A stretch of DNA of 63,369 bases, filler included, from Trichosphaerium sp. ATCC 40318 (lineage: Eukaryota; Protista; Tubulinea), in NCBI GenBank assembly GCA_038496445.1. It is 4 parts of 4 records of this genome, joined end to end, with 100 filler letters (N's around TTAATTAATTAA, not from the genome) between each part and the next. Parts side by side here need not be neighbours in the genome. Positions count along the whole stretch, not along the records: positions 24,537 to 35,108 come from JALMLS010000144.1; 3 more parts are not named here. One strand, given 5' to 3'. The notes beneath the pieces were generated by a model. The model was not told the origin of the DNA. It saw only the letters and a program-made list of their open reading frames with translations, and did no database searches. Numbering within the stretch: position 1 is the first letter of the stretch; each line of letters starts with the position of its first letter. The position numbers and the translations under genes were made by a program. Shown piece by piece: positions 1 to 54,699 of the stretch.

Positions 1-45
1 AGAGATTTGTAAACATTTTCATTTTTTGTTCTGTGAGCGTCTCTT

Positions 46-5075: not shown

Positions 5076-5546
5076 TTAAATAGCTTCTTTAACAAATCAT
5101 AAACAAGTAATCTGCCTTTGTAAATAAAAAGTATAAAGTAACTATTACACATAACGTTAACTAAAGATGGACAAGATTAGTCAACAAAGTGAGTCTTGTT
5201 GTTGTTACGGTCAATTTATTTATACACAGACATTTTCTCACAGCGCCTTAAATCACATTCCTACCTTAGTTGTTGAGATATCTGTGTCAGTGAGTGTCTT
5301 TGAGTTTTCTGGCGTTGAGTATCAACAATAGAGTAAAATAATCAGCCAATACTGAAAAAAAATCAAAAATATTGAGCATGAAAACCACATAAAACGAATC
5401 AAGCTAGTCAACATAGTTATCATAATGTTGAACACAACATCAATGGCAACAAAACGCAAGGTATGGATAAATATAAATGAACTTCAGGGTCTTGTGCATA
5501 AGAGCGAGTCCTCAACCGCTAGCAGAAAGCAAACTGCTTGTCTGTC

Positions 5547-6241: not shown

Positions 6242-6591
6242 TGACATTGAGTTTAGAGGGTTTTTGAGGTGTGTATAGCCAAAAGTAGGCAATTCAAGTC
6301 TTTTCGTTAATGGCGAAAACGAACACCTAGTATGGCAAGATTCAACAGCGTACCACATAGGCTCAAACTCTTTATTTAACACTTTATACTAAGTATAAAA
6401 GTATAAAACAAGCAAACACATAAGGTGCACAATCTACTTTGCATAGTTTACAGCAAGTCTAGCGAGCATAGCTCTGGTTTTAGGCAAGTATCTTGATCTA
6501 TTTGTTTTCTTAAGCACTTTTAGTACCATCTCTTTATCTCCACTTATTGTTATACAAAATGTATACCTAAAGCCTTGATAAGTTTACGCTG

Positions 6592-7835
6592 TCATATCTT
6601 TTTAGGATACCATAGCTTGTCCACAGCTTTAATTTTGCCTGTCAATGCGCAATTCTTATGTAGAAATTTGAAGCATTCGTTAGAATCTAGATTCTGTATT
6701 GCATATCTACAAGCCCTTTCAACTACATCACTCATATCATGTGTTATGTTAAAAATACTATGTCGAATTGTAAGCAAACAGCATTGTTGAATTGGTCGTA
6801 CAAGTCCCTTTCTGTTTTGGCAATTGCATTGTATAGAGTCCTGTCTCTTAGCTTAGAGTACAACTTAATGAATTGCGGTGATGTAAAATCATCTTCAATC
6901 CCATAGTTGGTAGGAATGTCGAGCTTTTTAACACAAAACCCAAAAGCCCTGGCTATGGCACTCCTATTTATTTTGGTACCAGGATACTCCACATAGCTCT
7001 TGAGAGTGTGGATGAGCATATCTTGCCTCACATAATATGGGATTTTCGAAAAGTCTGCTTTCTCAAACTGTTTACCAATATTACTTTGGGCTAGCACATT
7101 TTCAAAGTCATCACTCAGTAACGCAACCCCAATTGTGTACTTTTCGTATTGCTCCTGACAGCAGTTAGCTAACACATTAATGAAGTATAGTTTTACTTGA
7201 CAACCCAGCCAATCAGCAGCAGCCATTGCTTCTTGCAATCTTTCCACTTTTTGTTTGTCCGTTGTAATGGAGCCTCTATCGATATCTTGCAGTACTCCTA
7301 AAGGACTTTAGCGTTTCATGGAAATGTTCTATTCATCAGTACGTTTTATGCCTTCCAGTGTAACGTTATGTCCAAGGTTAAGGACGATTGACTTTTCGCC
7401 ACTGTTGTCAGCTTTGAGCTGATTCATCATTACTGGAACCATCTCAACCACTTTTGATGGGCTTTTGAATATTGCTAGTACTTCTTTATCCTTTGATACG
7501 GCTAATAGTGCATGAGTGCGGTAGATTATAAAGGCATATTTAACTTACTAACGTGAAACATATTTCGTCTCTGAGAGGTAAGTGACTTCGTCGATGCGTT
7601 TTCATACATTTGAGTATCAATAGCAGTCAACTCTGTAACAATTTTAGCGAAAAGAGAATTGAGACCATTCTTTGAATCACTGGTGATGGTATGTGGTAAA
7701 ACCAATCAAAAGCAGTATGTCGTACAGGAAACTAATGAACGATAGTAGTTATATTCACAAAGGTACAGTTTAACCATACTTTTTCGTTAAATCGCTTTTA
7801 GTTTGTGGAATGCACTCTAACTGCGCTATTGCCAT
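6592..7835 (-). CDS. Multi-exon hypothetical Skp1/BTB-like protein (right-arm copy)
   Basis: Mirror of 46-1288. Confidence 0.5.
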
Positions 7836-9021
7836 AAGAGACGCTCACAGAACAAAAAATGAAAATGTTTACAAATCTCTACAACAAAAGGTACATTAGT
7901 CCAACTAAGCGCGTTTATACCTTGTATACGCGTATGGCGTTTGGACTTTCAATAACTGACGTTCAATTTCAGCTTCAAGCTAAAATGAACGATTCTACGC
8001 TCAGCTTCGGCTTTATGGTTGGTGGCGCTATGAAGGATGAATACGTAGCATCAGAAAGTTCAGAAGGTAATTTTTTCTTTCCTCACCTGCGTTTTATACA
8101 CCACCTATCGCTTAACCAATGTCAGATGTGGTTGTACAATTATTAATGGATGTCCAAAATATTGATTCTAAGATGATAACATTTATAAGTACTCGTGTAC
8201 GTTGGACACGTGAAAATTTCCTCATTTTTTTGAAATTTACTTAAGTTGTTTTAGTTATCTGCTGACATACAAAACAATGTCTTTAATGCGTTATACAAGT
8301 ATGATGCTACTCAATAAAAATAATAGCATTAATGTTATCAACAAACATACAATGGACTCCAGTAATTGTCGAAGGCCCAAAAAATTTGCAACAACTTTCT
8401 GAAAGGAAAAACACCGCGTGTTACTCCTGTGAGAATGAGAAATATACAAGACATAAAGTAAAGAGCAAGCTAAATCATAATACGAAGCCATAGCAACAAC
8501 TAGCAGAAATAGAGGGTTGTTCTCTCCTACCTAGTTACTGTTTAATGAATTGTAACCAAATAACTCAGTGACTCTGACACGAACACCCATTTCCTTCGCA
8601 GTGACATCCATGGTAAAAGACTTAACATAAAATTTTTATTACTCGATGGATGACGCCGTTACATAGAAAGATACCCGACACCAGATGTTGTTTTTTAGAA
8701 CATGGTTTTCAAAAACCGAAATTCTCTTAAAAGTTAAGAATTACTGTTTTGAGATGTATTAATAGCCCGTTTGTAAAGGAACTACTAGTAGTTATTTTTC
8801 AAGCTTTCTGACGCAATACATGGCGCCAACGTACCTTACCTACCAAAAATTAATAATACTACAATCATCACTGATAGCCTGAGCAGCTCACTATAGTTTT
8901 TTTCTACTTTTTTTAAAGGATTCGGTTGATATCCTGTGCGCAAGCTAATCAGAATAAGTCATCTAACGCGGTTCTTGTCCGGAACTTCGGATAATCTTGT
9001 AGCGAAGCGTCCACAGATCGT

Positions 9022-15485: not shown

Positions 15486-17489
15486 TTACGCGTCTGGTTT
15501 TAATCGCGTGATTGACACTACGGTGTGTTTGTACTTCTTGTAGAGTTCTATTTGATAAATCATGTGTGACATCTCTTTCGTTTTTCTCCTAAGTCTCCTG
15601 TTGGTGGTTTTGTCTCTGTCTAGTTCTCTGTGGTATTCCGTTGACAGGCCTGTTGTTGTGAATTCTGTAGCATACCCAAAGCATGCTTTGAGTAGCATTG
15701 GTTTGTGCGTTTCGCTGTGACTAAAGACGTTATGTTCGTTATGAAATGTTGGGTATTTCATCGTGTCTTTATATTGTATGTCATCATGTGATCTAGTGTA
15801 GTCTCTTTTATTAAAGCCTAGTATGGCTAGAAGCCATAGTTCTGGTGACATGATTCTATTTGGGTTTTTGTATTTCATGAACATGTTAGTATGGTTAAAA
15901 ATGCGTTCATATAGAGGGGTGTTTTGTTCCGTTTGTTTTTCACCTAGTGGTGTAAGTTTACTTTTTATGATATTGTCCTCTAGGTGTCCTGTTATTGGTA
16001 TGGCTTTGTGTATACCTGTTAGGTCTCCATTCGTTTTGATTAGGTATTTGGTCACTTGTCCTATTATTTCTGTTGTCGATTCATAGAAGGTTCTGTGTGG
16101 GTCAGAAACTTAGGTGTGCTATGTCTTCTGCTTGTTCCACATGTGGTCTTTCGCATATTTCACATCTATTACTTTTGTACATCTCTTTCATATATTTTTC
16201 TATATATACGGTGGGGTTTTCTATCTTTTTGGCTATACCAAAGAGTCTTTCGTTTAGCCAGAGGTTGTTAGTTTTAAGTCTGAAGATAAAATCTTGGATT
16301 CTTCCAAATTCTGATTCGTTTCTGGAGAAAATCACATGTGATGTTTTCATGTCCGTGCCTTCGTATCTGGATGGTTTGGTGGATTCTGTGATCCAGCACT
16401 CATCCCAGTAGTTTTGGTTTTCGTTTTTGCGTGATTTTTGGTAATTACCGTGGACAATCATTCCGTTTTTGCTTACTGTGAACTCGTTATGACCTTCACC
16501 CATTTCTTCATAGTGTGGTGTTCTTTGTGTGATTCTGTCTCATCCTCTTTTGCTAGCTTGTCAGCTGCTTTATTCCCTTCTATGAGAGCATCTACTATTT
16601 CACTTCCATACTTTTCATTGAGTCTTTTAATTTGATTTTTCTTGTTCTTTGAGATTTTGGTTGTATCGTCATCTATGGTGTGTGCTGGTACCCATAACAT
16701 TTTTATATTCACTTTTTCCATTGCATTGTTGATACAATGGAGTATAGATTTGTATGGGAGTTTTTTTCTTTTGTGTTTATCCATTGTCTTGTAGTTTTTA
16801 ATGAGTTTTTTGGCACCTATGCAGTCTGTGCCTAAGACTGCTCTACAGCCTTGCAGTAGACTGTTTATTGCCATTTCTATCGCATATAGTTCTGCATATA
16901 TAGGGTTGGTCACATATGGAACCATCCCATAGATTTGGTATTGCTTATCTATGTATACTCCAAATCCAGCTCTTGAGTCCTGGTATTTGTCGTAGTCCTT
17001 CTTGCAACTACCGTCTGTAGATATTATGAGCGTGTTTTTCGTTTTTTCCATGTCGCTTGTTTGTATGGTGGTCCATCTTTGGTATGTGGGGCTCCATTTG
17101 TTGAGATTAGGTGTGTATATAATATCTCTTTCGTTACAACTGTTTATGTCAGCCCATGTGTCTAAGAAATTGTCATATACGTTGTAATGACTACTACCAC
17201 AACCTGGTGGCTGTAGTTTGACGTCACCAAGTTTGGATATGACCTGTGAATTAAATACTTGGGCGTTACATAATCTATCATTTTTGACTGCTTTGATGAG
17301 TGGGTTGTCATAATTTAGTATGTCGTATAGTATTGTGTTACCAAATCTTTCAGCTTGTAAATCAGATATGCATATGAGGTTTTTGGCCCCTACTTTATGT
17401 CCTCCGTATAGTCTGTGTGCTTTTTGTCCTTCAATGGATTTACATAGTTTTCTTGTGCGTTTTAGAATGAGGGTTTCTATTTTGTCCAC
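15486..17489 (-). pseudogene. LINE ORF2 C-terminal part (RNase H + Cys/His knuckle), frameshifted
   Basis: ORFs 16473-17489, 16102-16503 and 15486-16055 follow each other with frameshifts. Confidence 0.9.
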
Positions 17490-17499
17490 TGTATTATAT

Positions 17500-18532
17500 C
17501 AGTGGTAAAATGAAAACGGGATTTTGGATATAAATCCCACTAAATTCCTTTGTTTTAGGGATTTTTAAGGTAATTTGTGAAGAATTCTTATTTTTTTTTT
17601 TTTTTTATGACAGGATTTTTGATAGAATTACCATAATATTCCCTTAAATACGGAATTTTCAGAATTATTGTACAAAATCCACCAAATAATGTACTAATTT
17701 AGTTAGGGTTAGGGTTAGGGCTAGGGTTGAGGTTTATGAAAGTACAAATTAAGTTAGGGTTAGGGTTTAGTTTTATATTTGCAAAAAACCATCGACACCT
17801 TAGGTACATAGGTTTTTCTAGCGAACAATATCCACATGCTATTATTAAAGGTGCAAAAACCAATGGTACAGGTTAAAGTGCGTTAATCCAAAAAGTAACG
17901 GAGAACGCGTTTTAGGTGGTTTGGAAAATCACTTAAACATAAATATCTTTTACTTATCTGTTTTAGGATGATTAAAGCATTGCAACAGCCTTATTACACC
18001 ATTAAAGAATGTATTTAAAGCATTAACTCCAAGTACGTTGTTTTTAAAGCTTATTTCCACTTAATTTATCAAAAAACCCTACGTGTTCTTAATTTAGCGT
18101 TTACAAACGCATTAATTATTGTTCAGGCTCTCAAAACCAAATGCGATCAAATTACTTCTTTCGTTTATGAAGACATGATGTATTTAACTTGTACATATTA
18201 TTTAGGATGTTTGTATTTTGTAATGATCAATAAATAAAATGACTTTGCATTAAATCTGAACCAAAGTATCGAATAATATTTTGTGCAATTTATAAAGTAT
18301 TTTTTATTGAAATCTACAAAAAATACATTAAGAAATGCTATAAAGAATACATAGAGAATTCTATATAAAATACATATACAATTCCAAAAGTAATATTCTA
18401 AGAATTCTATGAGTAATACTTACGGAATTTCATATAAATTCAATGGGAATTAAGGAAGAGTTTTTCCGTCTACTTTTCCCATAGGAAAACAGGGTGGATT
18501 ACTTAAAAATTCCCATTTCTATTTTACTACTG
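17500..18532. mobile_element. Non-autonomous DNA transposon (CAGTRG...CYACTG termini) inserted in the LINE
   Basis: TIR cagtggtaaaatgaaaacgggatttt / aaaaattcccatttctattttactactg with ATAT on both sides. Removing it plus one ATAT restores the LINE frame ...FIAIPYNTVDKIET. Confidence 0.9.
17700..17772 (+). repeat. Interstitial telomere-like (TTAGGG)n tract inside the transposon
   Basis: ttagggttagggttagggctagggttgagg...ttagggttagggtttag. Confidence 0.8.
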
Positions 18533-18536
18533 ATAT

Positions 18537-20634
18537 GGTATAGCTATAAAGGACATCATGTATGCTGCTTTAGCTAGTACTAGTTGATTAATTGCTTTAA
18601 TTGCAATTCTCATGGGTACTCTGAACTTGGTGACATTGGTTATCATTTTATCCATACTTGTTTCTAGGATATCACCATGTTCTATTTAGGTTCATCCAGA
18701 TTCCTAGATCTTTGTAACACTCATTGCTTTCATATCTTCTGATTGGTTTATTTTTCCAGTTTAAATCTTGTTTGTCTGCGTCGTCGACATGTATGTTGTA
18801 GGTGAATCCTGACTTTTTGGTATTGATGTCTATGTTATAGAATTTTGCAAATGTTTTGACAATCGAGAATAGTTTCACCATGTTTTCTTTTTTGTCGGAG
18901 AAGAGTTTTATATCGTCAGCGTAAGCTAGCGCTGAAATGGTCAACCCTCCTATAAGGTATCCACATTTTGCGTTTTGTAGTTCTTCCATGAGTGGATTTA
19001 TGAATATTATAAAGAGAGTTGGGCTAAGTATATCTCCTTGTTTGACTCCTCTATTCACCTTGATTTTTGTGGTTCCTATTGGTGTAGTAATTTCTGCTAT
19101 TTGGTTGTTGTATGCGTTATCAATAAATTCAATGAACATTGGATCAATTTTATAGTATTTGAGGGTTTTAAGTAGTGCCCATTTGTCCACACTGTCATAG
19201 GCTTTACAAAAGTCTATGTAGGTAACAAATAGTGCATGTATATTCTCTAGGGCGTTTTCAATGATTCCATGGTATATCTTATGGTTCATGTGACAGTTTC
19301 TGGCTTGTGTGAAGCCAAACTGTGCTTCAGATATTATTTTGCAGTTTGTAATGTCTTTTTGTAGTCTTTTGGTGAGTATCGTAGATAGTATTTTGTAACT
19401 AGTGTTTAACAGTGAGATAGGTCTATAATTGCTGACATTAGCTTTGTCACCACTTTTGGGTAACAGTACGATATACGTTTCTTTCCAAGCTTTAGGAATG
19501 TTTTTATTAGCTATACAAAAGTTGCACATGTTGAGTATTTCTGTGCGTTGTTGGTTGTTTTCTGTATTGATGAGTCTTTTATATATTTCTGGGCCAATAC
19601 CAGAAGGGCCAGGAGTTTTAAAGTTAGCCATATTTTTTAAGACTTTGTTTAGTTCTTTGTGAGTTATAGGTGTCATAATACGTGTTCCTTTACTATATGT
19701 GTTTTTCTTAAAAGATTCTGGGATCAGGCCATCTTTTGGTGGGGTTGCTGTGTATATTTTTGACCAGAAACTGCCTACTAGTTCAATCATTTTTGTTTTA
19801 TCATATGTGGTTAGTATTTCATCATTTGCTACGTATTTAATGCATTCTGTGAATTTATAGCAGTTTTCATTGGCTTTACGCACACGGCTATAGAACTTTT
19901 TGAGGTATATACGTTCAAGTTCTAGAATATCGTTGATGCATTTTGAATTACTTTCTTCTTCCATGTCTTTATAGACTTGTTTTTTAGCCTTACCTATTTT
20001 ATTTATGGTACGTTTGGTAACTTTGAGTAGTTTGTCACGGTGGAATCCTTGGTTCAGATCACTGTGAGGGTTATTGTCACAGAAAAATGGTTTAAACTTT
20101 ACTGGTTTGTTCTTTGTGTTTTTGCAGATGAGGATCGCGTTATTATTACATTCTTCATCTGATATTCTCTTGTCTTTCAGCATGCTTTTGAGGTTTTTAA
20201 GTTCACTTCTTTCACGGTTGAGCTTTTTGATTTTATTGGAGTTTACTAGCCTTCCAAAGTCTCGATTGTTTGGATCTTTTGTTGATCCTGTGTATTGTTC
20301 GACGTGTTTGAATAATAGTTTAGTATAGCGTCGCCATCCGTCATCTACTGTTTTCCATCTGTTTCGCTTTTCAGCAGAGTTTTTGTAATTCATCCGTTTT
20401 TTGGATTCTAGTTCTGTTGGTAGTAGATCGGCTATGTCGTCTCTTTCGTATTTGAAGGTTTGGACACATTTTTCACCCAGGTTTTCTCTATTATATTCTT
20501 TGGTTTTAAATCTCTTAACGTAGGGTATTTTAGCTGGTTCACAAAGGTGTTCTTGCACCTTGAGATTTGTATCTACTATTACTGGCCTGTGGTCCGTGTC
20601 TAGTGTGTGATTACATAGTATTTTTGTTTCTGTA
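18537..20634 (-). pseudogene. LINE ORF2 reverse transcriptase segment
   Basis: ORF 18672-20666 has all RT motifs, with a frameshift after LNRTW. The first ~10 ORF codons belong to the inserted element. Confidence 0.95.
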
Positions 20635-20830
20635 CAGGTCTGAAAATTATCATGGTATAATACCATATTTTATGGTATAATCACCTTTTATGGTACAAGC
20701 TCAGTATAATCCATAATTATACCATATAATTATACCATAAAATATGGTATAATACCATGTTTTTTGGACAAATGGTATAACAGCCATTATACCATGTTTA
20801 TACCATATTTCAATTTATAAAATATAATTA

Positions 20831-21190
20831 TACCATAAAACATGGTACTATACCATGGTATTATACTGCATTTTAAAGTATATTATACCACGCATTATAC
20901 CATATAATTATACCATAAAACACAGTATTATACCATGGTATTATACTGTATTTTACAGTATTGTATACCGTGCATTATACCATATAATTATACCATAAAA
21001 CACAGTATTATACCATGGTATTATACCACATTTTACAGTATATTATACCATGCATTATACCATATAATTATACCATAAAACACAGTATTATACCATGGTA
21101 TTATACTGTATTTTACAGTATTGTATACCGTGCATTATACCATATAATTATACCATAAAATGTGGTATTATACTGTGGTATTATACTGTA
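20831..21190. repeat. 80-bp tandem repeat x~4.5
   Basis: Units start taccataaaa at 20831, 20911, 20991, 21071 and 21151. Confidence 0.95.
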
Positions 21191-21231
21191 TAAGTATAAG
21201 TTAGTCAAAGCTCACTTGGTCTGCACTTGAT

Positions 21232-22292
21232 CAGGTCTAAAAATTAAAGTGGTATATACCAGTTTTTTTATGGTATATACCACTTTTTTCAACAAAATGG
21301 TATATGAACTGGTATATACCATTTTGAAATACCACTTTTTTTAGAAATTAAGTGAATAAAAAAGAGGTATATGGAAGTGGTATATACCACTTTTCATTCA
21401 CATAATGAGACCTTCTAAAAATGGTATATAAAGTGGTATATACCACTTTTTTATGGTATGTGGTATATACCACCTTTTTATTGGTATATACCACTTTTAT
21501 GGTATGCTTCAAGAAGGTCATTAAGGAGCTTTTTGGTATTGGGTTTTCTTGTTGAACGATCATAGACGTCATACATTGAACGGTGTGTAGGGACCTTAGT
21601 ATATCATAGAATCTAACCAAACCAAGCTCATTCGAACCGCAGGACCTGATTCCAGTACCAACATTAAGGAAACTATATTGCAGGTATTATACAGACGTTC
21701 GTGGGTAACAGACAAAGGTTTATTTTATTTTCGTTTGATATACATTAACCGACCTCCGTAGGCCTTAGTAATTGATGGATTCAGGTGGGACCACTTTCAT
21801 TAGGTGCGCCAGCATGTTTTTACAGTAGGTACAGCAAGATCATGGAGATGGACGAATTTTCCAGACGCCCATAGTAATGTAACTGTAGTGGACATTGTCC
21901 AAAACTTGTAACTCACAAACTGTGTATTAAATAAAGTGTATTTTCTGGAATTGCAGGTGTACCATAAGTAGACATAAAGTGGTATATAAGGGTGGTATAT
22001 ACCATGAAAAACTGGTATAAAAAAGTGGTATATAAGTGGTATATACCTAAAAAAAGTGGTATAAAAAAGTGGTATATTTTTTTTTTTCTGGTGAAAAAAA
22101 GTGGTATATTTTCTGTTTTTATACCTGTTTTTTTTGGTATATTGTTGGTATATTTGGTCAATATACCACTTTTTTTGGTATATTTCAGTCAAAATATACC
22201 ACTTTTTTTGGTATATACCATAAAAAACTGGTATAAAAAAGTGGTATAAAAGTGGTATATACCAAAAAAACTGGTATATTTTTTTAGACCTG
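21232..22292. mobile_element. Nested related DNA transposon (CAGGTCTAAAAA...TTTTTAGACCTG) with GGTATATACC arrays
   Basis: 12-bp perfect TIR flanked by AT on both sides, with dense palindromic tggtatatacca motifs at both ends. Confidence 0.88.
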
Positions 22293-23748
22293 ATTTAATA
22301 GCATATGGACCTACACAAACGCCATACCACACAATGCTTTGACAGTAGCCGTTATTGAACATAATTGGCATATAAATGTGTGAAAAACAGTTTTAAGAGA
22401 GAAATCTGGTAATGCGCCCCAATTACGGGCGTTTTAGGGATAAATTGGCCAACTTTCTCCGATTAATGGTATTTGAGGAAGAAACCACTCCGTGTACCCC
22501 ATGTTAGAACGCTACAGTGGTATACACACCAAAAACGCGTTTAGTGCTCGAAAAATGCCCATTTGCAAAAAACCTCCAATTGGAGGTTTTTTTCTCCGGC
22601 TTTCATTTTTTTCTCCCCTCCATACGCATTTTTACACTCAATCAACGCCATACAGCCTCATTTACCAAATCAAGAGCAAAATTATTTATTTTTTTTTGAC
22701 ATTCTTGATATATGCCCCAATGTGTGTTAAACCACGTGATTAGTGATATAAGACAAAGTTGTTTCAGAGCCTACCCATTTTTCGAGTTTTTTGGTTTTTT
22801 TTGGATTTTTTTTGATTTTTTTGGTTTTTTTCCTACCAAATGCCCACATTTGCCGGAACAGATAGCATTTAGGCTCTGCACCCATGCGTTGACCTTACGA
22901 GTGATATTGTAAACTAATTGGCTAAGCCAGGGCATAAAACTAAGTTTTGACCAGTTTATTGCCCACACAACACAAGATATGCTAGAAAGTAGTTGTTTTA
23001 AAGCTGTTTGCCATAGGTTTTACAGGCTTAATAGGTGATATAAAAAAAACAAAACGTGTTAGCCGCCCAACCAGGTACTATTCTGCTAGAACTCGTTTCC
23101 GATGAGGTTGGTAGCTATTTTCATTTCTTTGTTTTAGTCTTGGTTTGGCTTCACCGTGCAGGTCATTTGTTACTCTCAGCGCTGCCATAAAACAACAATT
23201 TTTGTACGACTATTTATTTTGTGTACAAGAAACCAAGCCGGCGCTAACTCTTCTTTTAGGTTTCATGCTATATCCATTCAATGCACTTACAGCAAGTACA
23301 ATCTGTTCTTTTAAGGTTATTTGATCACTGCAAAAAAGGACATGGGCAAAACTAAAAGTCACGGATGTAAACAAAAAAAAGATGTATTAATAAATGTGTT
23401 TTTATTTTTAGAACAGTTTTTACACAGTATAATACACCTGGTTTTGTGGTATAATCTACCAAGTTTTAAGGTATAATATACCAGGCTTTATGGTATTATA
23501 CTGTGTTTTATACCATGTTTTATGGTAGAATTATACCATATAATGCATTTTTTCAGGTGAAAAAATATGGTATAAATTCGCACTTTCTACTGTATATTTA
23601 TGGTATAATTTGGCTGTTTCATGGTATAAATCCTTTGATTTATGGTATATTATACTGGAATTTGTGGTATAAAATTGGAATCAATGGTATAATTATACCA
23701 CAAATTCATGGTATCTACCATAAAAACAGCTCGAGAATTTTAGACCTG

Positions 23749-24436
23749 TAATACATTCAGACATTTTATCATTACTAAGACAGTAGTCTATTCAGGATTT
23801 TGCCTTTTTCGCTGAGTACCAGTCGCACCCAGACGCATGTGTGTATTTTGTCTCTTTATTATTCTCGCACCACATGTCTCTTAAGTGATGTTTCTCTATG
23901 AATTCGGACATGGTGTCAATGTTATGACGTGTTTTTTCAGAAAATCTGAATTTGTCTATTTTACGATGTATCATATTGAAATCACCTATAACAGCTAGTC
24001 TAGAGTTGTGGGTGAGCGTGCTTTCTTCTATGGCTTGGGTAATTCCATTCATAAATGGTATTTGTTTTTTATGTACATTAGGTCCGTATAGACCTATTAA
24101 TGTGATTTTAGGTTTGTCAGGTAATTCAACATAACACTTTATTGCTTGATTTTTTAGGTTCATAAGTGGTAACACTGTGACGTATCTATTAACATCCTTT
24201 CTAATAAACACGCCTACACCTCTTCTAGGGTTTAGTTTATTATCATTCATGAGTTTACATTTGTTTAGTGCTTCAACTCTCGATAGTTTATCTTTCCTGA
24301 TAAGTTCTTTAACCGTTTTTTCAGTTTTGATTGTTTTGAGTTCGTCGTCTGAGTATCCAAAAAGATGGAGCTCATAGTCTTTGATAAGTCTGTTATATTT
24401 ATTTGTTACCATGGTTCTACCTCTTTCTCTGAGGAA
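23749..24436 (-). pseudogene. LINE AP-endonuclease segment
   Basis: ORF 23792-24412 (RGVGVFI, LYGPN, IGDFN, LRDMW, YTH) has a premature TGA where the R of SRIDY is expected. Confidence 0.92.
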
Positions 24437-24536: not shown

Positions 24537-24544
24537 CAAGCTAA

Positions 24545-25533
24545 AAATCGTCGGTTTTACAACAGAGTATTTTAGTGTTCGCACGCGACCGCGAGCTCGC
24601 GGTGCGATTTACGACACGCGAAACCTCTGTTTAAAAATACTTGCAAAAAAAAAAAAAAAAAAAAAAGATTAAAAAAAGATTAAAAAAAAACAACCCTCAC
24701 CTCTTTCCATTCAGCAGGACTGAGCTGAGGTTTGACTCTGCTGGCTCCCCATATCGCAAAATTCACCTTACTTATATCTCCCGCCTCCGCTTGGTAATCG
24801 AAGACCTGGCCTGCGTCGTCGCACCACATCTTGAACAGGTGGCGGTAGCGATCCACCTTGGAGTCTGGAGTGGTCAGACTTTGCAGAAAGTTGATCTTGG
24901 TGCAGTAGATCGCTATCGCTTGCATCTTGGCGAAAGGATTTATCCACTCCACATTCTTGATTGCAAATTTGCAGGTTGTAGCTGCATTTTGTCTAAGGCA
25001 AACAAGTAAGAAACAATTGAACAATAAGGAAAAACAAAAAAAAAAACTGATTCGTTGTTCGAGTTTTTACGACAGAAAAATCTCGTGTTCGAACGCGACC
25101 GCGAGCTCGCGGTCAGTCGACCGACACGTAAAACACGTGTTCGAAAATATTTGAGAACGTATGCCAACTCTGTCAAAAGACAGTGTGCTCCATCTCCAAC
25201 TCCAAAGCCAACAATAGGGTCTGTATTGTACTCATCACACCAAACAATAGGCATAGGGCAAAGCACAAACCTTTTGGTAAAGGTTTCATAAATAGGCATC
25301 TTCTGTATAATGTTCCTGGGGTTGACTCCTCTGACATTCAAAAAACAAGCTATGTGTGACATGTCCAAAGAGCCTTTGTAAAATGAGGGCTTCTTCACTC
25401 TCAGATACTTCTTGTTGATAGAGTTGGCAGCAATCCCTCTTAGCAAAGCCTTTTTTATTGATGACTTTATGATGCAGCCATTCAATTTATTGGTGCCTGA
25501 CTTCATGTAGCTACATAAAAGTTAAAAAAAAAA

Positions 25534-25565
<32 letters not shown>

Positions 25566-27300
25566 GACGACGTTCGTTTTCGAACACATAGAACGCGTGT
25601 TAAAAATATCGCGAAAAGTGTTACTTACTCCACAAAGAGATGGAAATCTGAATCATTGCCAAAGCTCAAGAAATCTCTAAAATGGACCAAAAGAAGGGCA
25701 ATGTAGTACCAAGAATCTGTGACATGAAGTCCCATGGCTGTGAAGAATATGCCAGTCCAAAGTAGCACCTGCCAATACAACTGTCTCCACTTGCAGCTTA
25801 TAATCCATCCATTCCTCTCTTTCTCCTCTACCTTCGATTCCTCATCTCCGTGTTCTCTCGGCATGGGTTTGTGCTCCTTGTAATCTCTGGTGTAGTTGCT
25901 TTCGAAGTGCATCGGCTTCCACCACTTTTCTTCATCCAAGGAGTAGATTTTTTTGACATCTTCTATAAACTTCTGCAGTTGGTCTACTCTTTCAACAAAT
26001 GGAAATCTCTCCTAAAGAAACAAATTAATTAATTAATTTAAAAAAAAAACAAAAAAAAAAAAACCTAAAAGCCGACAATTTTACAACAGGATATTTAAGT
26101 GTTCGTACACGACCACGAGCTCGCGGTCACGCATTCGACACATGAAAACTGTGTTATGAATACTTTAGCAAAAAAAATCAAAAAATAATCAAAAAAAAAA
26201 AATCAGAAAAAAAAAAAAAAACAAAAAAAAAAAAAAAAAAACAAAATAAAACGAACACGGCCCGCGCATGTATGTATCGGAAAACGTACCTTGAATGCTG
26301 CCTTCAACTTGTTGTTAGGAGTTATTTGGGACTCCAACACATTATCAAAGCTGGCAGCAAAAAACCCATTTAGGCATCTCTTCATCCTCTTGATGGGCAT
26401 GGTTTTAGCATAAACCAACTGGTTGGCTATGATAACACCTCTACATAGATAAATTAGTTGAAATGAATTAAAAATAAAAAAAAAAACAAAAAATAAAAAA
26501 AAAATATAAATGGCAGCTACGTTTATGAACATGTGCCGCGCGTGTTGCGTCGAACGCGAACTTTAATGGGTAAAAAAAAAAAAAAAATGGACAAAACAAA
26601 AAAAAAAACAAAAAAACAACCAACTTACTCAAAACCAAAGATAACATCTCTGTGTTCTCCAATAAGGGTACCCACAATTTTTGTTTCAGTATTGTGGTTT
26701 CCATGACTGCTCACAATCATCCAACCAGGGCTTGTTGGAGCTAAAAAGAGTATTAGAAGATGGCACATTAAATAAAAATACAAACATGGTTTTTTCGTGT
26801 GGAAAATATGACCTCGAGCTCGCGGTCGGAAACAAACACATTAAATATGTGTTATGTACACAACGACAAGCTTGCAGTCAGTTATAAAGCAAGACTTTAA
26901 AAAAAAAAAACGGTTTTTAAAAAAGTACACACTTTTTATGTGTACGAAAACCGGCCCCGAGCTCGCGGTCAGGTACGAACACAAAAAACATGTGTTGAAT
27001 ACCACAAAGCAAGCTTGCAGTCAGTTATAAAGCAAGACTTTTAAAAAAAAACAGTTTTTTAAAAAGTACACACTTTTTATGTGTACGAAAACCGACCGCG
27101 AGCTCGTGGTCATATACGAACACGTAAAAAACGTGTTTATAATCGTACAGTGAGCTTGTGGTCTGTAAAAAAAGCAAAACAACAAAAAAATATTAAAAAA
27201 AAAAGTACACAATTAAATTGTGAACCAAAACCAACTGCCAACTAGCGCGACATGCGAACACGCGATATACGTGTTCTAATACCGCGACGAGCTCGCTGTT
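24545..27300. repeat. Dispersed palindromic repeat, core GACCGCGAGCTCGCGGTC, 7 copies, all intronic
   Basis: GAGCTC centres at 24593, 25103, 26117, 26816, 26959, 27100 and 27289. Confidence 0.93.
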
Positions 27301-27720
27301 GAAAATTGAAGCAAAATAAAACAGTGTGAACCAAAACCAAACGAAAAAAAACGCACACGCGTTCTGCGTGTTACGAAACCCTGTTTGAGTTTGGTTCTAC
27401 CATGAGAAAAAAACCGCATGGTAATGGAAAAATCGTACACATGAAAACCGTGTACAAAAACCGTCGGTTTTTTTCGAAAAATTTACTTGAAAAATTAACA
27501 AATTTAGGGTTTTAAAAAAACCATCTAAAAGCAAAAAAACCCCCTTTATTAGTCTTTAAAAATTAAAATAAGACTAATAAAGGGGGTTTTAAAAAAAAAA
27601 GAGGTTAGTACCTAGTTTTTTCTTCCTCCTGAGCTTAAGCTTGCCATCAGCTTCTTTGGAGGGCTCATTCTCATCAGAAAACTCAATGTTTATGAGAGAG
27701 AGGTCTTCATCTGAGCTCAT
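24698..27720 (-). CDS. Unknown multi-exon protein (at least 6 exons, 3' end cut by the gap), paralog of 58439-59532
   Basis: Exons: MSSDEDLS..KKKL (~27611-27720), APTSPGWM..FGF (~26629-26740), EGVIIANQ..AAFK (~26290-26442), ERFPF..WWKPM..FHLFV (~25629-26011, one apparent homopolymer frameshift), YMKSG..LTEL (~25160-25510), QNAATT..EWKE (~24698-24993). The first four join in phase at GT-AG boundaries. Confidence 0.7.
27536..27590. repeat. Perfect 21-bp stem hairpin in the first intron
   Basis: aaaaccccctttattagtctt N13 aagactaataaagggggtttt. Confidence 0.9.
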
Positions 27721-28035
27721 CCTTGATTTATGAAAAGTCAAAAAAGTAAAATGAGGCTTTTTTTCCCCCAATAATCGCGTTGAGAAATAGACAGGAAAGT
27801 TTCGTGTTTCGAAATGTGAATCGGAAATTTCGCCTGTTTAAAAAAAGTAAGAAAAAAATGAGAATTTGACAGTTTGCAAGATTGTTGATGAGGTTCTGGG
27901 TTTGTAAAAAACTCTATCTTGCTGTAACCCTACAGGGAGATTGTATGTGCAAAAAACATAAAAAAAAGCCAAAAAAATCGAAAAAATTTTACAACAGGGT
28001 AGAGTAGTGTACAAAAAAATACGGTTGGTACATAC

Positions 28036-28233
28036 TCCTAAACCCTAAACCTCTAATTGGCTTCTAGTATTTAACCCTAATTGACATTATTTTCAACTAG
28101 GGTTAGGGCTTATTTGTACACTTACATTAGGCTTAGGAGTAGGTTTATAACCCTAATGAATGCAACACATACTGTTGGTTAGGGCTAGGGCTAGGGTTAG
28201 GTTACTAACCCTATGTTGAATTAGGGTTAGGTT
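28036..28233. repeat. Degenerate telomere-like repeats in both orientations
   Basis: Interspersed taaccctaa, tagggttagggc and ggttagggctagggctagggttagg. Confidence 0.7.
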
Positions 28234-28393
28234 ATTAAAAGTTAGTTCATAATCTTTTTTACTTTTAAATTCATGTAGGTAATAAACACCAATATAGTAC
28301 TTTACTTGGTAAAAGCTACTACATGAGGCCTAGGCCACATATTTGTCAGGCTAGCCATGTTAACAATTTATTGTTAAAGTTGTTTATTATTAA

Positions 28394-30965
28394 GGGGGCA
28401 CTCTGAGCGATTTTCGACAAATATTTCGGAACTGATTTTTATGCTTGTAAGCCATTGTTTTTTTTGATTTTTTTTTTGAAGGGCTTCACAATGGCGAGTT
28501 TAATTTGTAATAAAAGATTCATTTGAATGCAGTGCTTGATGAATGAGTTTGTTATGATGAAAATTTTTCACTTTGTAGTACGGAAAGGTACGGAACCCAC
28601 CTTTTCATCATATGTCCCCTATACAACTAAAAGCTTATTGTGAAAATATGAACATGGTGAGTTATGGTGACTATGAGATGTTGACAATTTTATAGCAAAA
28701 AACTGTAGATTTTATTTTTTTTTTTTTTCTAACACTTTTTTTGCATCTTTGTTTGCCAACACTCGATCAATTAATGCTTGCCTTTTCCCTGTCATAAGAA
28801 TCTTTCTTGGCCTTAAAAATGCTTTTAAGGTAATAATTGTGACATCTACTTTTGTTCCACCATTGTCTAAGGTTAGTATTTCTTGGACTTCATGTTCTGA
28901 ACTCATGGCTTCTGTTTTTTCTTGCTCTCCATATACGTCTCCAGCTGCATTAGATATACCAGCTTCTTTTTGTTTTTTAATATTTTTAGCTCGTTTTAAT
29001 GCGTTTTGCTGCATCTTATAACTGTCCGAGGCCTTGCGTTTCTTATCTTGTTTTGTAGAGTGATCCAATATTTCTAATTCGCGTTTTGAATAATCAGTAA
29101 TTGCAAGACATAATTGCTGCAATACACGCTTGTGTAACTCAACCTTGCCCTCATTGTGTTCGACAACAAAAGCATGAATGCGAGGAGTAAAGCTGGCTCT
29201 ATAATTGATTCGTTTAGAAACCCATTTTAGCTTAGCATTGTTGAGAGACTCAACATAACAAGTATTTTTTCCATGAATAAATGTGTTTACTTGTTTGGTG
29301 ATAGCTGTTACCTCTTTTTGTAGTGCTTTTTTTTTCTTTTGATCATCTCCATATACTGTTAAATATCTGCCTGAGTTTTTGTTTAAATACTTCTTTTCAA
29401 ACTTGGACATAATGTAATTAGCGTGCCAGCTAACTTTTTTAAATCTACCTCGATCTGGTGGTTCTAAATAACTGAATACCTCTGTCCAAACATCAGACAC
29501 CATATGCGTTTCAAATAAAGATGATTTTGATTCGCAAGACTTCCAATGAGTTGTAATACATGGACATTTGTCTTTACACATGATAGCTGAATAGTGAGAC
29601 ATTGTAAATCCCCAACGAAACAAAAACTCATTTCTCATAGCAGATATATCATCGGGATACTTTTTTTCAGATTCTTTAATACAACGCATAAACCAAGTTG
29701 TTATACGATCTGGATATGTCACGTATCGTTTTGATTTTCCAAAAATGAGTTGCAATCGCTTTTTAAATGCTTTTTTCATATGACCTGGATCTCTATACAC
29801 AGGAATAAGCTGCGTTCTTGTATCTGTAGTCCAAGCACTGTTTGTAGAAGCATCACCATCTAATGATACACTACAAACGTTTTTTAATAAATCATTGCAA
29901 GCTAATTCCTCTATCATATCTTTAAACAAAGCACCTTCCATTCCTTTGGAGGAACCGTCATAATTTCCAACAAATGTATGTGTGCCTGATGCAGTAGAAA
30001 CGTTTTGTAGTTTAGTTTTAACCCCAGCAAAGATAATTTTCCGTATTTTATAATCTATAACAAATAGTGTTCCATGTCTGGCGTTGTTATAAGCTACATG
30101 TGACCAAGCACCATCAGCTACCAAGTCTATTTTCAATAATTTGTATTTTTCTTGCCACGATAGCATGCTTTGTGTAGCCACAGCTGTTGTTGCTTTCCAC
30201 ACATATTTTTGAATCTTTGTACCCAAGTCTTTGTTAATTACAGGCAATCCAAGAGCGCCCATGAGTGCTCTTGCTTGACTTAATTCTAGTCTTGAGAGGG
30301 ATATAGCTGCTACAGCTTTGACATTTGCAGTAAATTTTTTTGATGATTCATGTTCTGTTGTATTGTGTGTATCAAACTTCTTGGTAGAACGACATGTTTG
30401 ACACTTAAGTGTATAGTGTGATATTATACCAGTAGCAGTGCTTTCATCTGGTATCTTCCAGTTAGTATCACCGCATTTAGTACACGGTACTGACAATAAA
30501 AGATTTTCGAATATTTTTCGTTCAATAATTAGTGAGTCAGCGGATACTTTGCGACCTCGTGAGTTAAGGGATTTTTTTTGTTCTTTTTTAGCCTTTAGCA
30601 CTGCACAAACAATTTTATTGCAGTTTCGGCATATATGCGTAGCTTTATCATCTTTTATAATGGATTCTGGTTTTATTGGTCGTTTTTCTTTATTAGAGCG
30701 TATATTAGATCCACAAGAGGCACATTTACCTCGAAACGATGCCATTGATAGTAAATAAACAATATTTAAGTGTATAAACCCTTACTTAACATTTATTTCC
30801 CGACAAAAATTTTGATCAAAAAAAAATTTTCCATTTTTGTTTTGCAAATTGTGAGCTTGAGAGTGAACGGAATCAAACGAAACCACCGCCGATCAAACCG
30901 CAGCATCATTTTACACCATGTAAGTGTCTTTACAGAAAAATTTTTTTTGACTCCAGAGTGCCCCC
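28394..30965 (-). mobile_element. Apparently intact autonomous DNA transposon, Kolobok-like
   Basis: TIR gggggcactctg / cagagtgccccc, with TTAA on the left and TTAC on the right, enclosing a single 677-aa transposase ORF. Confidence 0.85.
28712..30745 (-). CDS. DDE transposase (Kolobok / 'Mutator-like' domain) with N-terminal Zn fingers, internal F-box-like motif and C-terminal SAP domain
   Basis: CxxC pairs, ADGAWS, NYDGSSKGME, LDGDAS, DPGHMKK, NTCYVESLNN. SAP-like TLKAFLRPRKILMTGKRQALIDRV. Confidence 0.88.
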   Translation of the reverse strand: MASFRGKCASCGSNIRSNKEKRPIKPESIIKDDKATHICRNCNKIVCAVLKAKKEQKKSLNSRGRKVSADSLIIERKIFENLLLSVPCTKCGDTNWKIPDESTATGIISHYTLKCQTCRSTKKFDTHNTTEHESSKKFTANVKAVAAISLSRLELSQARALMGALGLPVINKDLGTKIQKYVWKATTAVATQSMLSWQEKYKLLKIDLVADGAWSHVAYNNARHGTLFVIDYKIRKIIFAGVKTKLQNVSTASGTHTFVGNYDGSSKGMEGALFKDMIEELACNDLLKNVCSVSLDGDASTNSAWTTDTRTQLIPVYRDPGHMKKAFKKRLQLIFGKSKRYVTYPDRITTWFMRCIKESEKKYPDDISAMRNEFLFRWGFTMSHYSAIMCKDKCPCITTHWKSCESKSSLFETHMVSDVWTEVFSYLEPPDRGRFKKVSWHANYIMSKFEKKYLNKNSGRYLTVYGDDQKKKKALQKEVTAITKQVNTFIHGKNTCYVESLNNAKLKWVSKRINYRASFTPRIHAFVVEHNEGKVELHKRVLQQLCLAITDYSKRELEILDHSTKQDKKRKASDSYKMQQNALKRAKNIKKQKEAGISNAAGDVYGEQEKTEAMSSEHEVQEILTLDNGGTKVDVTIITLKAFLRPRKILMTGKRQALIDRVLANKDAKKVLEKKKK

Positions 30966-31240
30966 TTACTTAATACACTTAGATTACCCCCATTAGTGAA
31001 ACTTAGTGAAACATCCTCAATAATAAAACTGTAATGTAATAGTAAAGAACCAGTTTTGTGTAGTCACAAGGTGGAAATCTTTGATACCAGCTCAAAGATT
31101 TCCCAGAAAACTCAGGTTATTTGCAGCTCGCATGGGCTTCGCTGTTGCCTTAAGGCGCTCTAATATGCTGCCAATGGTAAGTAGTAATGATAATTAGTGC
31201 ATTAAGTGAGTGCCTTAACAATGAGATTACCCCAGTAAGA
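30960..31240. repeat. ~280-bp dispersed repeat (second copy 54229-54504)
   Basis: Colinear similarity from gcccccttacttaa to gattaccccagtaaga. Sub-copies of gctgccaatgg at ~31330 and ~31450. Confidence 0.9.
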
Positions 31241-31554
31241 GATGATTTTTAGAAAAAAAGAAGTTGTGTATTGATGACATGTAGGTTGTGAATTTTTTCA
31301 CAACACAACCAACTTAAAATAGTCAAATACGCTGCCAATGGTAAGTAATAATGACAATTAGTGCATTAAGTGAGTGCCTTAACAGTTAGATTGCCCTCAT
31401 AAGTAACAAGTTTATTTCTCATCTCACATCACATACAACAACTGTATACGCTGCCAATGGTGGATGGCTTAATAGTCATAAGTTCCCCCTTTATAGCATA
31501 GTAATAACAATTGTGTGCTGTTAAGTGACAGAACTTAACACATAATCCTCCCCC

Positions 31555-32642
31555 TTAATGACGGACAAGAAACTCACTGGTTAATAAGAATTGACCAGCC
31601 CAATACAATGCCATTACAACAAGTTGGTATTGTGTTTTATCTAGAGGAACCTCATCTCGTAATTCTGTTTACAACAAGTGTTAACATTTAACAAAACACA
31701 TAGGGTAAAACAAAACTTACCAGGGCTAAACACACGAATACCAATCAATGCATCGCTTGCCATAAATAAGAAAGCTCCAATACACGTCTTTGTTGTATCA
31801 GTTGAAGCATAGCTAGCCATCAATACAATCATGAGTGAATACCCTACAACGGCAACTTGCATGACATCCTCACTCGGCCATATGCAGTACACTGCGATGG
31901 CAGCTACACGCAAAACACGTGTAAGTTAACGATATATAATTTAACGAGAAAGAATTTAGAAACGCGTTTGTAGCTGAACACGTGCACGCTGACACGTTCG
32001 TTCACAAAAAAAAAATGACAAAAACAAAAATAATGGTTACTAGAGATACAATAAAAGTTGGTGACGTACCGAGAATACTGAGAACTACGAAGAGAACAGG
32101 AGGCGGTTTAAGCGTTTTGCTCTTTTTGACGTACGAGGTAGCGAAAGCGCGTGCAAACAACAAATGAGCGACTGCGAATGCGCCAAGGCCGTATAAAAAG
32201 AACTCTTGCTTGTACTAAGCATTTATACCGGTTAGATTAACCGGTAAGTTTTTAAAACTAATCAATAATGGCAAGTACCTCTAGTAGGAAGTCGCCCAGA
32301 GCCGAAGACAATAGTGCCAAAGCAAGGCCAGTTCCAAATTCACCAGAATAAGGTGCTGTTACAGCAGAGAACGCCAAGAACACGCAAACGAGCGGTTTAG
32401 CGATTAAACGCACTGTAGGGATATCTATGCGCAAACGTGAGCTATTAGTGATACACAGTGTTACTGCAACGCGAATAGGAGTTATTCGCTCAATTTGCTC
32501 GGTTGCTTTTTCTTTTTTTCAAATATCTTTGGGCTGTTCGCTCTTATTTAGGCATACCTTGCAACAAACCAACTACATATACGGCCACTAGGACGACAGC
32601 AAGTTGGACGTAGAGGGAAAATACTGGCTTTGGGGTAGGCAT
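31555..32642 (-). CDS. YhhN/TMEM86 lysoplasmalogenase-like membrane protein
   Basis: Motifs SALGDFLL, GLGAFAVAHLLF, GAFLFMASDALIG and LYWAGQFLL across exons. Confidence 0.88.
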
Positions 32643-33107
32643 GGTTTTTATTGCGTTAGAATGAGAAATTGATTTGGAGAAAAAAAAACAGCCACAAGAA
32701 AATGAGAAACCCTTTGAACGGACACCTGTCACATTTTAACAAACAATGACGTATTAGGTGCTAACACCCCACCACTGAACCACGAGTATACAAGGGATCA
32801 CAAATGGCAGCTGATCACCGCCTTTAATTTTTATTTTTCCTATTTTCACAAAATAATGCCTTCATTTGGTTTTCCTCGTTTTGGAGCACCTCCATAGTGC
32901 TCACCTATATACAATAACGACAAGAGCATCCCTTGCAGGCGACACAACCACAATACGCTAACTACAATCCGAAAAAAAAAAAACAAGCAAGGCAAGCCGA
33001 CGCATTTAGCGCTTTGAGTGCCGTCCCTTATTTTTAGTGTCGCTTTTTTTCGTTTGTTGATTTTTTTAAATAGTTTTGCACGCTTTTTATCTCTTCGAAT
33101 AGCACGC

Positions 33108-34045
33108 CCTAATCTGTGAGGTCATCACGTGAGTGCGGGTCCAGTGGTATTTGCTGTCTGTATGCTGCAAGCAATTTGTTGGTCGACATTTGTTCGCTAT
33201 CTACACGACAAGCAATTAATATTCATTTTTTTATACATGTTAAAAAAAAAAATAAAAAACAACGACAGACTCGCTAAAATGCTACAAACCGTATGCAAAG
33301 TTGCACAAGGTTTTTTACCATGTAGGTCTAAGCGTTTTCAAAAATAAAACGGTAAAAACAACTGAAATGCGTGTATCGGTATAAAATGCTTGAACAGTAA
33401 TTTGTGGTACGCACCTTCCATGTCGTACAAGTGTCGGAGCTGAGACATAGATAAATCTTTTCTTTTTTTGTGGTATAGCTCCAACAGCGTCTCCACATCA
33501 ATATTCTCGCGTCGTTGTAGCGTTTGAATAATTTTACGCATTTTGTCACGTTCGGTGAGTTGTGCGCGTCTACGAGCCAAGAATTCCTTCACTTCTATCT
33601 GCCTCTTGCCGAGCATCGCCTCGTCGATTTGTAAGGTCGGATAAATTTCAGTTTGAAACTTTTCGCCGCTAAGGCCAGGACGCGGCTTCCTGTAACGCGT
33701 GTTGAGCGAAGGCCTTCGATTCGTGTTGTATAATGCAGGGTCGAGGTCCTGGTTCATGTACTCCTTACTACACGCTTGGTATTTATCTGAGGTGCCTGAT
33801 CGTTCACTAGATTTGCCCACTCCTTTCATCCAGTCTACTGCCTTCAGATTTGATTTAATAAGCTGCGTGCGAGACAACTGACTGCGCGTTCGTTTGTCCA
33901 GGGACAGTAAGAAATCGTCCACTTTTCTTTCCACGCTTCTAGGGTAGTTTTGTCGCCTTTCGAGCACATTTAGTCGTTCGATATTGTCGGAAGTTAAACC
34001 AACCCGCGATCTAGAGCTTTGGTTGTAACTTGCTGAACGGGCCAT
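33108..34045 (-). CDS. Hypothetical protein (long first exon plus two short exons)
   Basis: ORF 33338-34045. Splicing at gaag|gtgcgt continues in frame to ...HSRDDLTD*. Confidence 0.6.
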
Positions 34046-35108
34046 ATTTAAACACCAGTTGAGGCCGTTGCCGTTTAAATTTTGGTAAAATTGGGTAAAT
34101 TTATTTCAAGAGTCAAGAAAACTGAAACAAAATAACATTTTCGCTAGATTGTACTAACGAATAAAGCGCTATCGTTACACGCTGTTAAGCAAAGCGCACT
34201 GGAATAACTACAGCGTTAAAAACAGATTCTAAGATAATATTGCCCTGCAATTCGTTAATTTCGTGTAGTTTGAGCATGAAATTGCTCTTTGGCGCGTTGT
34301 AAGGTGTCACCACACTTTTGTAATTAAAATCTCGCATAAACAACGAGACACTGGTTTGTTGCAACCATACGGCGTTGAAGAGTGAGGTTTAGTGAGTGTG
34401 TATAACCACGTGATAAGCTAACGCAAAAATGTTTAGACATTTGAAAAAAAAGAAACGAGCTTTATAAGTGCCTGTCTACATTGCCTTTGGTGACTTACAC
34501 CTTGCCGAAGGGTACATACCTATTTTGGTGTCTTCGCAGTAGCGATCACGTGGAAATGTGAGTGCGTCCGTTCTTGCACTCATTAATCAACTACTATGGT
34601 GTATGTAACATAATATATTCTGTGACATGAAATTTAGCAGGAGATAATTGCGACAGAGGATCACTTCACGTTGCATTACAAAGTTTTTGGCTTGTATGTG
34701 CAATATTGTTTCGTTGTTGTCCTACCATTACGAAACCACTTTAACAAATACAGGAAAGCGTGGCACGCCGTTGTGCGTGAGCTCTTGGTACTTTATCACT
34801 ATGGTGTCACCTACACTTTGTTAAAAATATGTCAAGCCTGTAGGACATACCCACTTTAGGACGCACTGAACTTGGCATGCCATGTGCAACGTTTACACTG
34901 ATACCATTTTGTAAAGTGCACACTAACCCTTTGATTAAATGGTTAGTAGGTAACATTACTCTGCTTGTACCTCTATTGAGTTGTCCTGTGTTATACGCAG
35001 ATACTTTAACCCGCGTTTCATAAAAGTACTTTACTTTTAAAAGGGTATTTGATCTTTTGCCTACATACCTAAACAATTTATTAAACAACCTGGAAGCGGC
35101 GATACCAC

Positions 35109-54504: not shown

Positions 54505-54699
54505 CATATTGTGAATATGAAAATAGATATTTTATGTGAACTGCAAGCCCTTAGATGATCTAATACGCTGCCAATAGTAGATATACATAGTACTGTTAAA
54601 TACCTCTTTAAGGGTCTGTCTTTTTTTATTTCTCTTTGTTGTATACCAAGGTCTGTAAAAGATCATGAATGTGACCCGAAATGAAATAATCTTTAAAAG

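Follow-up and report, generated by a model that had tools for sequence, protein, structure and literature searches.

We describe a repeated palindromic module in the introns of a gene, here called gene X, within a 63,369-nucleotide stretch of the genome of the protist Trichosphaerium sp. ATCC 40318 (GenBank assembly GCA_038496445.1; below, the window), which consists of four contigs joined by linker gaps. Gene X lies on the minus strand at the left end of the contig at positions 24537-35108 (JALMLS010000144.1). We favour, at a probability of about 40%, the reading that the intronic modules form an array of selected DNA sites for a dimeric protein, which would keep the non-coding parts of a methylation-targeted gene open. 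This reading was drawn from sequence, and the evidence for it comes from the fixed geometry of the sites, their pattern of conservation, a diverged paralog and a contrast in CpG content between exons and introns.

The model of gene X comprises six exons in one open frame of about 463 codons. The gene runs on past the contig, whose end at 24537 falls within intron 6, and because the contig stops there this intron is known from its donor alone. There is no good in-frame GT donor for intron 5: the candidates are a weak GTTGGC at 25168 and a non-canonical ATACGT at 25162, which differs by one base from GTACGT, a common donor in this organism. As the donor is thus either a weak GT or a non-canonical AT, this copy of the gene may be damaged.

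The module is centred on an 18-bp palindromic core. Allowing up to three mismatches, we found six matches in the window, all with at most two mismatches, at 24587 (1 mismatch), 25097 (0), 26111 (1), 26810 (1), 26953 (2) and 27094 (1), compared with an expectation of 0.00 (100 dinucleotide shuffles of the window gave no match). A preliminary description of this DNA had reported seven copies in four introns and none in an exon. The placement holds, as all seven lie in gene X introns 1, 3, 5 and 6, and the copy at 25097-25114 is indeed perfect, but the seventh (27283-27300) is degenerate, keeping CGAGCTCG and differing at 6 of 18 positions.

Alignment extended the core to a 69-bp module in which it is flanked on both sides by an arm of the form ACA-N11-TGT, mostly ACAC-N9-GTGT. 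In 6/6 full modules the distances between core centre and arm centres are 25.5 and 26.5 bp, with 52 bp between the arms. Imperfect inverted repeats of about 90 bp had been noted before; their dyad structure is real but is that of three separate palindromes at fixed distances, not of one long hairpin. Across the six gene X introns ACA-N11-TGT matches 18 times and never with a spacer of N10 or N12 (spacer lengths 4-19 were scanned, and peaks at N9 and N7 stem from the overlapping ACAC/GTGT), and the rest of the window is flat, with about one arm match per equal length. In 1000 shuffles the mean was 0.7 matches and the maximum 4, and matches in all six introns were never reached (0/1000). When arms were held out intron by intron, no background position scored higher than 14 of the 18 and 1 of 59,391 did so for the other four, the six defining bases having served to select the arms in this ranking. 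The strongest arms outside the training set lie in an intron of a YhhN-family gene, upstream of the gene X ATG (three), in intron 1 and in an intron of the paralog described below. Introns 2 and 4, earlier set apart as two remaining CpG-rich introns, do contain 8 (26441-26628) and 9 CpGs (25511-25628) once their boundaries are corrected, but they carry the same arm motif and therefore all six introns belong to the pattern. The three full modules of intron 1 are likely inverted relative to the others, because the two spacers come in the opposite order.

Between introns, copies of the module agree at 64-75% of positions. This agreement is uneven, with a pairwise identity of 0.92 for the core, of 0.84 and 0.79 for the half-sites and of 0.38 for the spacers; sites for dimeric proteins typically show such a combination of fixed distance and unconstrained spacer sequence. 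Furthermore, conservation is mirror-symmetric (rho 0.63, 0/20,000 permutations; outside the core 0.48, p 0.0035), and the cores have retained 20 of 24 CpGs. In a CpG-losing gene, neutral decay would be expected to strike the core first; since the CpG-rich core is instead the best-kept part, the decay does not appear to be neutral.

The paralog (59532-58439, minus strand) lies on another contig and splices to an open frame with GT-AG introns. It shares 35% identity with gene X across an alignment of 217 residues, which scores 313 compared with 67 for the best of 300 shuffles. Its introns have the same position and phase as gene X introns 3 and 4, and intron 2 is matched within two codons. These matching positions at such a level of identity make it likely that gene X is spliced as modelled. 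The paralog has an array of its own (Table 1), in which the GAGCTC-type cores sit in flanks unlike those of gene X. Using a band of 22-27 bp and an arm spacer of N10-11, both set after the data had been seen, the 19 GAGCTC sites of the window are accompanied by an arm in 7/7 cases in gene X introns, 3/3 in the paralog intron and 0/9 elsewhere (background 1.2%). The preliminary description had proposed that the introns hold a repeated functional module rather than neutral spacers, possibly binding sites for a dimeric protein. The fixed spacings, the mirror-symmetric conservation without covariation and the diverged counterpart in the paralog support both proposals. It had also described bordering A tracts. 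Such tracts are present, but read along the sense strand they consist of T in each of the six introns, none of which has a run of 8 or more A on that strand. In the array intron of the paralog no run exceeds 8, so that the tracts are neither a symmetric nor a conserved component of the module.

The exons of both genes are strongly depleted in CpG, with 17 CpGs compared to 44 expected in gene X and 1 compared to 19 in the paralog (expectation from the codon use of 8 other open reading frames, ORFs; 0/2000 simulations as low), and the observed/expected ratio (o/e) of TpG+CpA in them is 1.35 and 1.51, respectively. In introns the CpG o/e is 2.23 for gene X and 1.45 for the paralog; control introns have 1.24, and the window as a whole 0.76. 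The controls were 26 introns kept out of 31 candidates (median 56 nt), hand-picked and not RNA-verified; one of the 26 belongs to the neighbour of the paralog, and the five dropped include the YhhN intron with the best outside arm. As 5-methylcytosine marks transposons and silent genes in several protists (PMC12344493), the CpG-poor exons with their excess of TpG and CpA likely record past methylation.

Put together, the fixed-geometry intronic palindromes, likely maintained by selection, would serve as targets of one or two dimeric proteins, and the bound sites would hold introns and promoter unmethylated while the exons of the family have apparently been eroded by CpG methylation. Tandem duplication and conversion would have spread copies, in either orientation, from intron to intron, with selection retaining half-sites and spacing as the spacers drifted, and the site set would have diverged together with the gene. 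The binding protein could be the product of gene X itself. If gene X sits in a selfish element, the array would act as do the arrays targeted by VANC in Arabidopsis VANDAL transposons. A bolder version, which we regard as a long shot, would be an undescribed selfish protist gene family whose dimeric protein binds arm-core-arm palindromes in all of its own introns and shields itself from silencing by CpG methylation, the site code having co-evolved separately in each paralog (arms 52 bp apart in gene X, a 49-bp period in the paralog, and different cores).

Several observations weigh against an array of protein sites that protects gene X. Nothing in the window marks the gene as part of a mobile element, and no DNA-binding domain was found in its protein, the C-terminus of which lies beyond the contig. 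The best arm outside the training set (31906) is in an intron of the unrelated YhhN-family gene on the same contig, and the 6-base arm pattern is present in 1 of the 26 control introns. The shared spacing could also come from common descent of the copies. An architecture common to the gene X and paralog arrays is suggestive, not proven, because the distance band was chosen post hoc and profile searches were not significant: the gene X model reached the paralog with an E of 0.073 and the paralog model had no match in the gene X modules. Finally, exon 6 retains 12 CpGs, and the CpG o/e of the hand-picked host introns indicates that CpG-rich introns are partly general here.

Gene X is an orphan gene, for which no homologue, family or fold was found beyond the paralog in the window. 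In agreement with the earlier remark that no domain could be recognised, Pfam, PHROGs and NCBIfam searches were blank; in Pfam, exons 2-6 scanned singly rather than as the joined protein gave no match below E 0.06. Homologue searches gave 51 candidates for exon 4 among longer proteins (0 at E 0.01), one for exon 5 and eight for exon 6, and no homologue was found for either of the latter two. Exon 4 had no match among 1.84 billion representative sequences, the best ESM Atlas value for exons 4 and 5 was 0.83 with none usable, and the best hit of the protein in a PDB sequence search had an E of 0.28. The predicted structure of exon 4 is helical (pLDDT 55; no fold match at E 0.001), and that of exon 5 has a pLDDT of 29. 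One sequencing run (kind unspecified) yielded 0.06 of words and no contigs on the part covering exons 3-6. Two further leads did not hold up. A resemblance of exons 5-6 to ParB/Srx seen by eye was rejected after failing all three profile tests: profiles from 47 ParB-like and 10 GmrSD sequences gave an hhalign probability of 0.1, ParB profiles scored below 0 bits in hmmsearch, and the glocal z values against 150 shuffles were -0.67 and -0.16. For a possible link to DUF3723 and Starship elements there was no Pfam match, and no paper was found pairing it with ParB.

Among the alternatives, the module could be a small non-autonomous inverted-repeat transposon (miniature inverted-repeat transposable element, MITE), the arms being transposase-binding ends and copies surviving in introns since exonic insertions would be lethal to the gene. 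MITEs are short, dyad-symmetric and multi-copy, occur in both orientations and have T/A-rich surroundings; a short non-coding body lies between their terminal inverted repeats. The gene X module fits much of this, being dyad-symmetric over some 70-85 bp, present in both orientations, diverged between introns and set in T-rich sequence, and transposons are common in the window. However, the preliminary description had named a common MITE scattered through intergenic DNA and unrelated genes as the finding that would speak against it, and the other 59 kb of the window contain no copy of the full module (best outside match E 0.073). No flanking direct repeat of at least 5 bp, that is, no target-site duplication, was found for 6 of 7 copies, in a search that excluded low-complexity repeats and so would have missed TA and A-tract sites. 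The conservation profile, with the CpG-rich core kept best, is not that of neutral decay, and the lone arms of introns 2 and 4 and upstream of the gene, together with the differently built paralog array, require extra events. On the 63 kb searched, we consider a MITE, whether restricted to the gene or spread through the genome, unlikely but possible, and even if the module were one, its restriction to one gene family would need explaining.

We consider it improbable that the modules serve a larger integrated or extrachromosomal element as sites of recombination, replication origin or partition, with the introns merely sparing coding sequence. The arm-core-arm geometry would suit such a role, and resolvase sites have a three-site layout. 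Seven sites within one gene would nevertheless invite deletions, neither contig has an identified recombinase, replication or viral core gene, and the ParB and GmrSD profiles do not match gene X. Baculovirus hr elements offer a parallel in their tandem units, each with an imperfect palindrome (PMC4535591, PMC2834656), which serve as enhancer and origin (PMC4535591), but the gene X modules are located within introns of spliceosomal type in a gene of eukaryotic style, and no viral gene was identified in the vicinity. In DNA scans, the exact 18-mer was found at 6 loci in viral sequences, all of 67-70% GC and with no related protein; arm plus core gave 0 viral loci and 103 metagenome loci, all of 50-75% GC and none encoding a relative; and the full geometry gave 0 viral loci. 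Protein-level searches of viral contigs confirmed 0 of 62 and 0 of 28 stretches; in a further one, 2 of 5 stretches were confirmed with no locus given, and these are not counted, as they may come from the record of the window itself. Palindromes are not mentioned in the excerpt of a preprint about an endogenous giant virus that bears introns (10.64898/2026.10.09.758095).

The modules might also act as hairpins of RNA or single-stranded DNA, as structured intronic RNA or a splicing aid. Folding z-scores of the seven modules range from -1.45 to -3.60, and arm positions 5 and 13 pair in 12/18 arms with two pair types, although this pairing falls short of significance (Fisher p 0.12). Covariation does not exceed that of shuffles, 159/500 of which reached its score (in 10 rows, of which 3 are reverse-strand repeats, with few independent copies), and core mismatches show no bias towards sense-strand G-U. 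Both module orientations likely occur within one pre-mRNA, predicted folds vary by copy, the two introns with lone arms do not fold better than their shuffles, and no Rfam match came near the gathering score. A hairpin role is thus very improbable.

We give little credence to the idea that the introns are introners or that the module is a nucleosome-length spacing cassette: the module nearly fills intron 5, but the intron ends are unlike, lengths range from 118 to 871 nt, similarity is confined to the interior module, no flanking duplication was found and introns 2, 3 and 4 sit at or near positions shared with the paralog, which also speaks against the introner-like origin proposed earlier. 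The 143/141-bp spacing in intron 1, previously likened to the nucleosome core length, is real but is the period of a tandem duplication, and the period in the paralog is about 49 bp; a nucleosome-length cassette is therefore unsupported. A post hoc observation on spacing that would favour such a cassette is that the acceptor-side arms of introns 6, 5, 4 and 3 (24562, 25072, 25584 and 26086) are 510, 512 and 502 bp apart, about three 170-bp steps, with exons of 292, 348 and 383 nt between them; the series breaks after intron 3.

Published introners do resemble the gene X introns in having related sequences in several introns and inverted-repeat structure (PMC9860276), but in gene X the similarity is internal rather than end-to-end, is limited to one gene family within the window and occurs at old intron positions; that study treats interior similarity as secondary insertion and filters it out. 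The symmetrical sister stwintrons of Hypoxylaceae (PMC8469720) likewise resemble their own reverse complement around a central palindrome and lack target-site duplications. Their inverted repeats are, however, 45-55 nt intron termini, found in many unrelated genes around a 10-nt AT-rich palindrome, whereas the CpG-rich module of gene X is interior to the introns, has arms that are themselves palindromic and occurs in a single gene family. As described in these papers, introners and symmetrical stwintrons are whole-intron families at new positions, which the gene X introns are not.

Table 1. Positions of the modules, arms, exons and introns of gene X and its paralog in the window
Feature	Positions	Strand	Details
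Full module, intron 6	24562-24630		arm 24562-24578, core 24587-24604, arm 24614-24630
Full module, intron 5	25072-25140		perfect core 25097-25114
Full module, intron 3	26086-26154		core 26111-26128
Full module, spacers reversed, intron 1	26784-26852		core 26810-26827
Full module, likely inverted, intron 1	26927-26995		core 26953-26970
Full module, likely inverted, intron 1	27068-27136		core 27094-27111
Degenerate module, intron 1	27258-27300		one intact arm and 6-mismatch core
Two lone arms, intron 1	27355-27453		27355-27371 and 27437-27453
Three weaker arm-like sites upstream of gene X ATG	27791-28010		27791, 27932, 27994; ranks 2-4 of non-training matches in the window
Gene X exon 1	27612-27720	-	from first ATG; 0 CpG
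Gene X intron 1	26741-27611	-	871 nt; tandem duplication of 143/141 bp with three full modules, plus one degenerate module and lone arms
Gene X exon 2	26629-26740	-	0 CpG
Gene X intron 2	26441-26628	-	188 nt; one lone arm 26529-26545
Gene X exon 3	26290-26440	-	0 CpG
Gene X intron 3	26012-26289	-	278 nt; full module and lone arm 26255-26271; position and phase as in paralog
Gene X exon 4	25629-26011	-	5 CpG; best match to paralog
Gene X intron 4	25511-25628	-	118 nt; one lone arm 25584-25600; position and phase as in paralog
Gene X exon 5	25163-25510	-	0 CpG; end 25163 (ATACGT donor) or 25169 (GTTGGC donor)
Gene X intron 5	24993-25162	-	170 nt; module with perfect core takes up nearly all
Gene X exon 6	24701-24992	-	12 CpG; gene continues past contig
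Gene X intron 6	24537-24700	-	donor only, cut by contig end; full module
Paralog exon, corresponding to exon 3	59367-59532	-	
Paralog intron, corresponding to intron 3	59041-59366	-	five units of about 49 bp; GAGCTC-type cores alternate with ACA-N10/11-TGT-type arms
Paralog exon, corresponding to exon 4	58730-59040	-	
Paralog intron, corresponding to intron 4	58653-58729	-	ACA-N11-TGT at 58699-58715
Paralog exon, corresponding to exon 5	58439-58652	-	cut by contig end

Other features of the window were recorded alongside these. Intron 1 of gene X also contains a separate near-perfect inverted repeat with arms of about 21 bp (27533-27596, CCCCC...GGGGG), which is unrelated to the module and possibly a tiny MITE. 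The intron of the YhhN-family gene that holds the best arm-like site outside gene X spans 31904-32030 and is CpG-rich. Upstream of gene X, degenerate telomere-like TAACCC/TTAGGG repeats occur in both orientations (28040-28230), followed at about 28391-30970 by a stretch with TTAA flanks, inverted GGGGGCACTCTG ends and a PF20700 transposase ORF with an internal F-box match. Kolobok elements have a TTAA duplication and RR..YY ends (PMC9587614), and because its bounds and ends fit this description we regard the element as Kolobok-like. The PF20700 gene was considered as part of the gene X system and rejected, being a separate insertion with its own closed ends outside gene X. A related end sequence lies near 54228-54507, and a similar short sequence (GAAACCACCGCC...) was seen by eye at 30880-30915, the start of the gene of the Kolobok-like element, and at 63030-63070 on the paralog contig. 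Head-to-head with the paralog is a gene (59626-60499, plus strand) with no Pfam match, in which the first ORF part has 0 CpG and the 82-nt intron after it has 9, together with one ACA-N10-TGT. The other contigs carry spliced oxysterol-binding, EH-domain, arrestin, GST and F-box genes, the oxysterol-binding protein gene having two likely GC-AG introns (57728 and 57593, minus strand). A long interspersed element (LINE)-like element with reverse transcriptase and RNase H ORFs occupies 15486-20669 (minus strand) and is adjoined by 80-bp and shorter tandem arrays (20600-23750). Positions 1-7880 form a long inverted duplication with arms about 99% identical and duplicated ORFs, which may be an amplification or an assembly foldback.

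We found no description of a module like that of gene X in the literature, in searches that did not use the motif string itself as a term and did not cover supplements. By analogy, the closest working model for an array of protective protein sites would be VANC21, which binds a short motif amplified by tandem repeats in introns, those of its own gene included, and upstream, and which lowers CG methylation locally (PMC5735166). VANC/VANDAL systems share with gene X motif arrays in introns and upstream that are built in tandem and diverge between related copies (PMC5735166, PMC10398659). The VANC21 motif, however, is the 9-base YAGTATTAY, for which the excerpt of the paper mentions no palindromes (PMC5735166), compared with three palindromes at fixed distances in gene X. 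Gene X is not a member of the VANC family: Pfam scans of its single exons revealed no VANC-type homology, and no enclosing Mutator-type element was found around it.

The value of the case is limited by a single assembly, the lack of homologues and a truncated gene. In the excerpts of the literature examined, anti-silencing through motif arrays in the introns of a selfish element itself is represented only by Arabidopsis VANDAL. If the bolder version of our reading is true, VANC-like self-licensing would have arisen independently outside plants. With its fixed three-site geometry and two naturally diverged versions, the system lends itself to testing protein-site co-evolution by swaps. Another, unrelated example from a protist would point to a general strategy.

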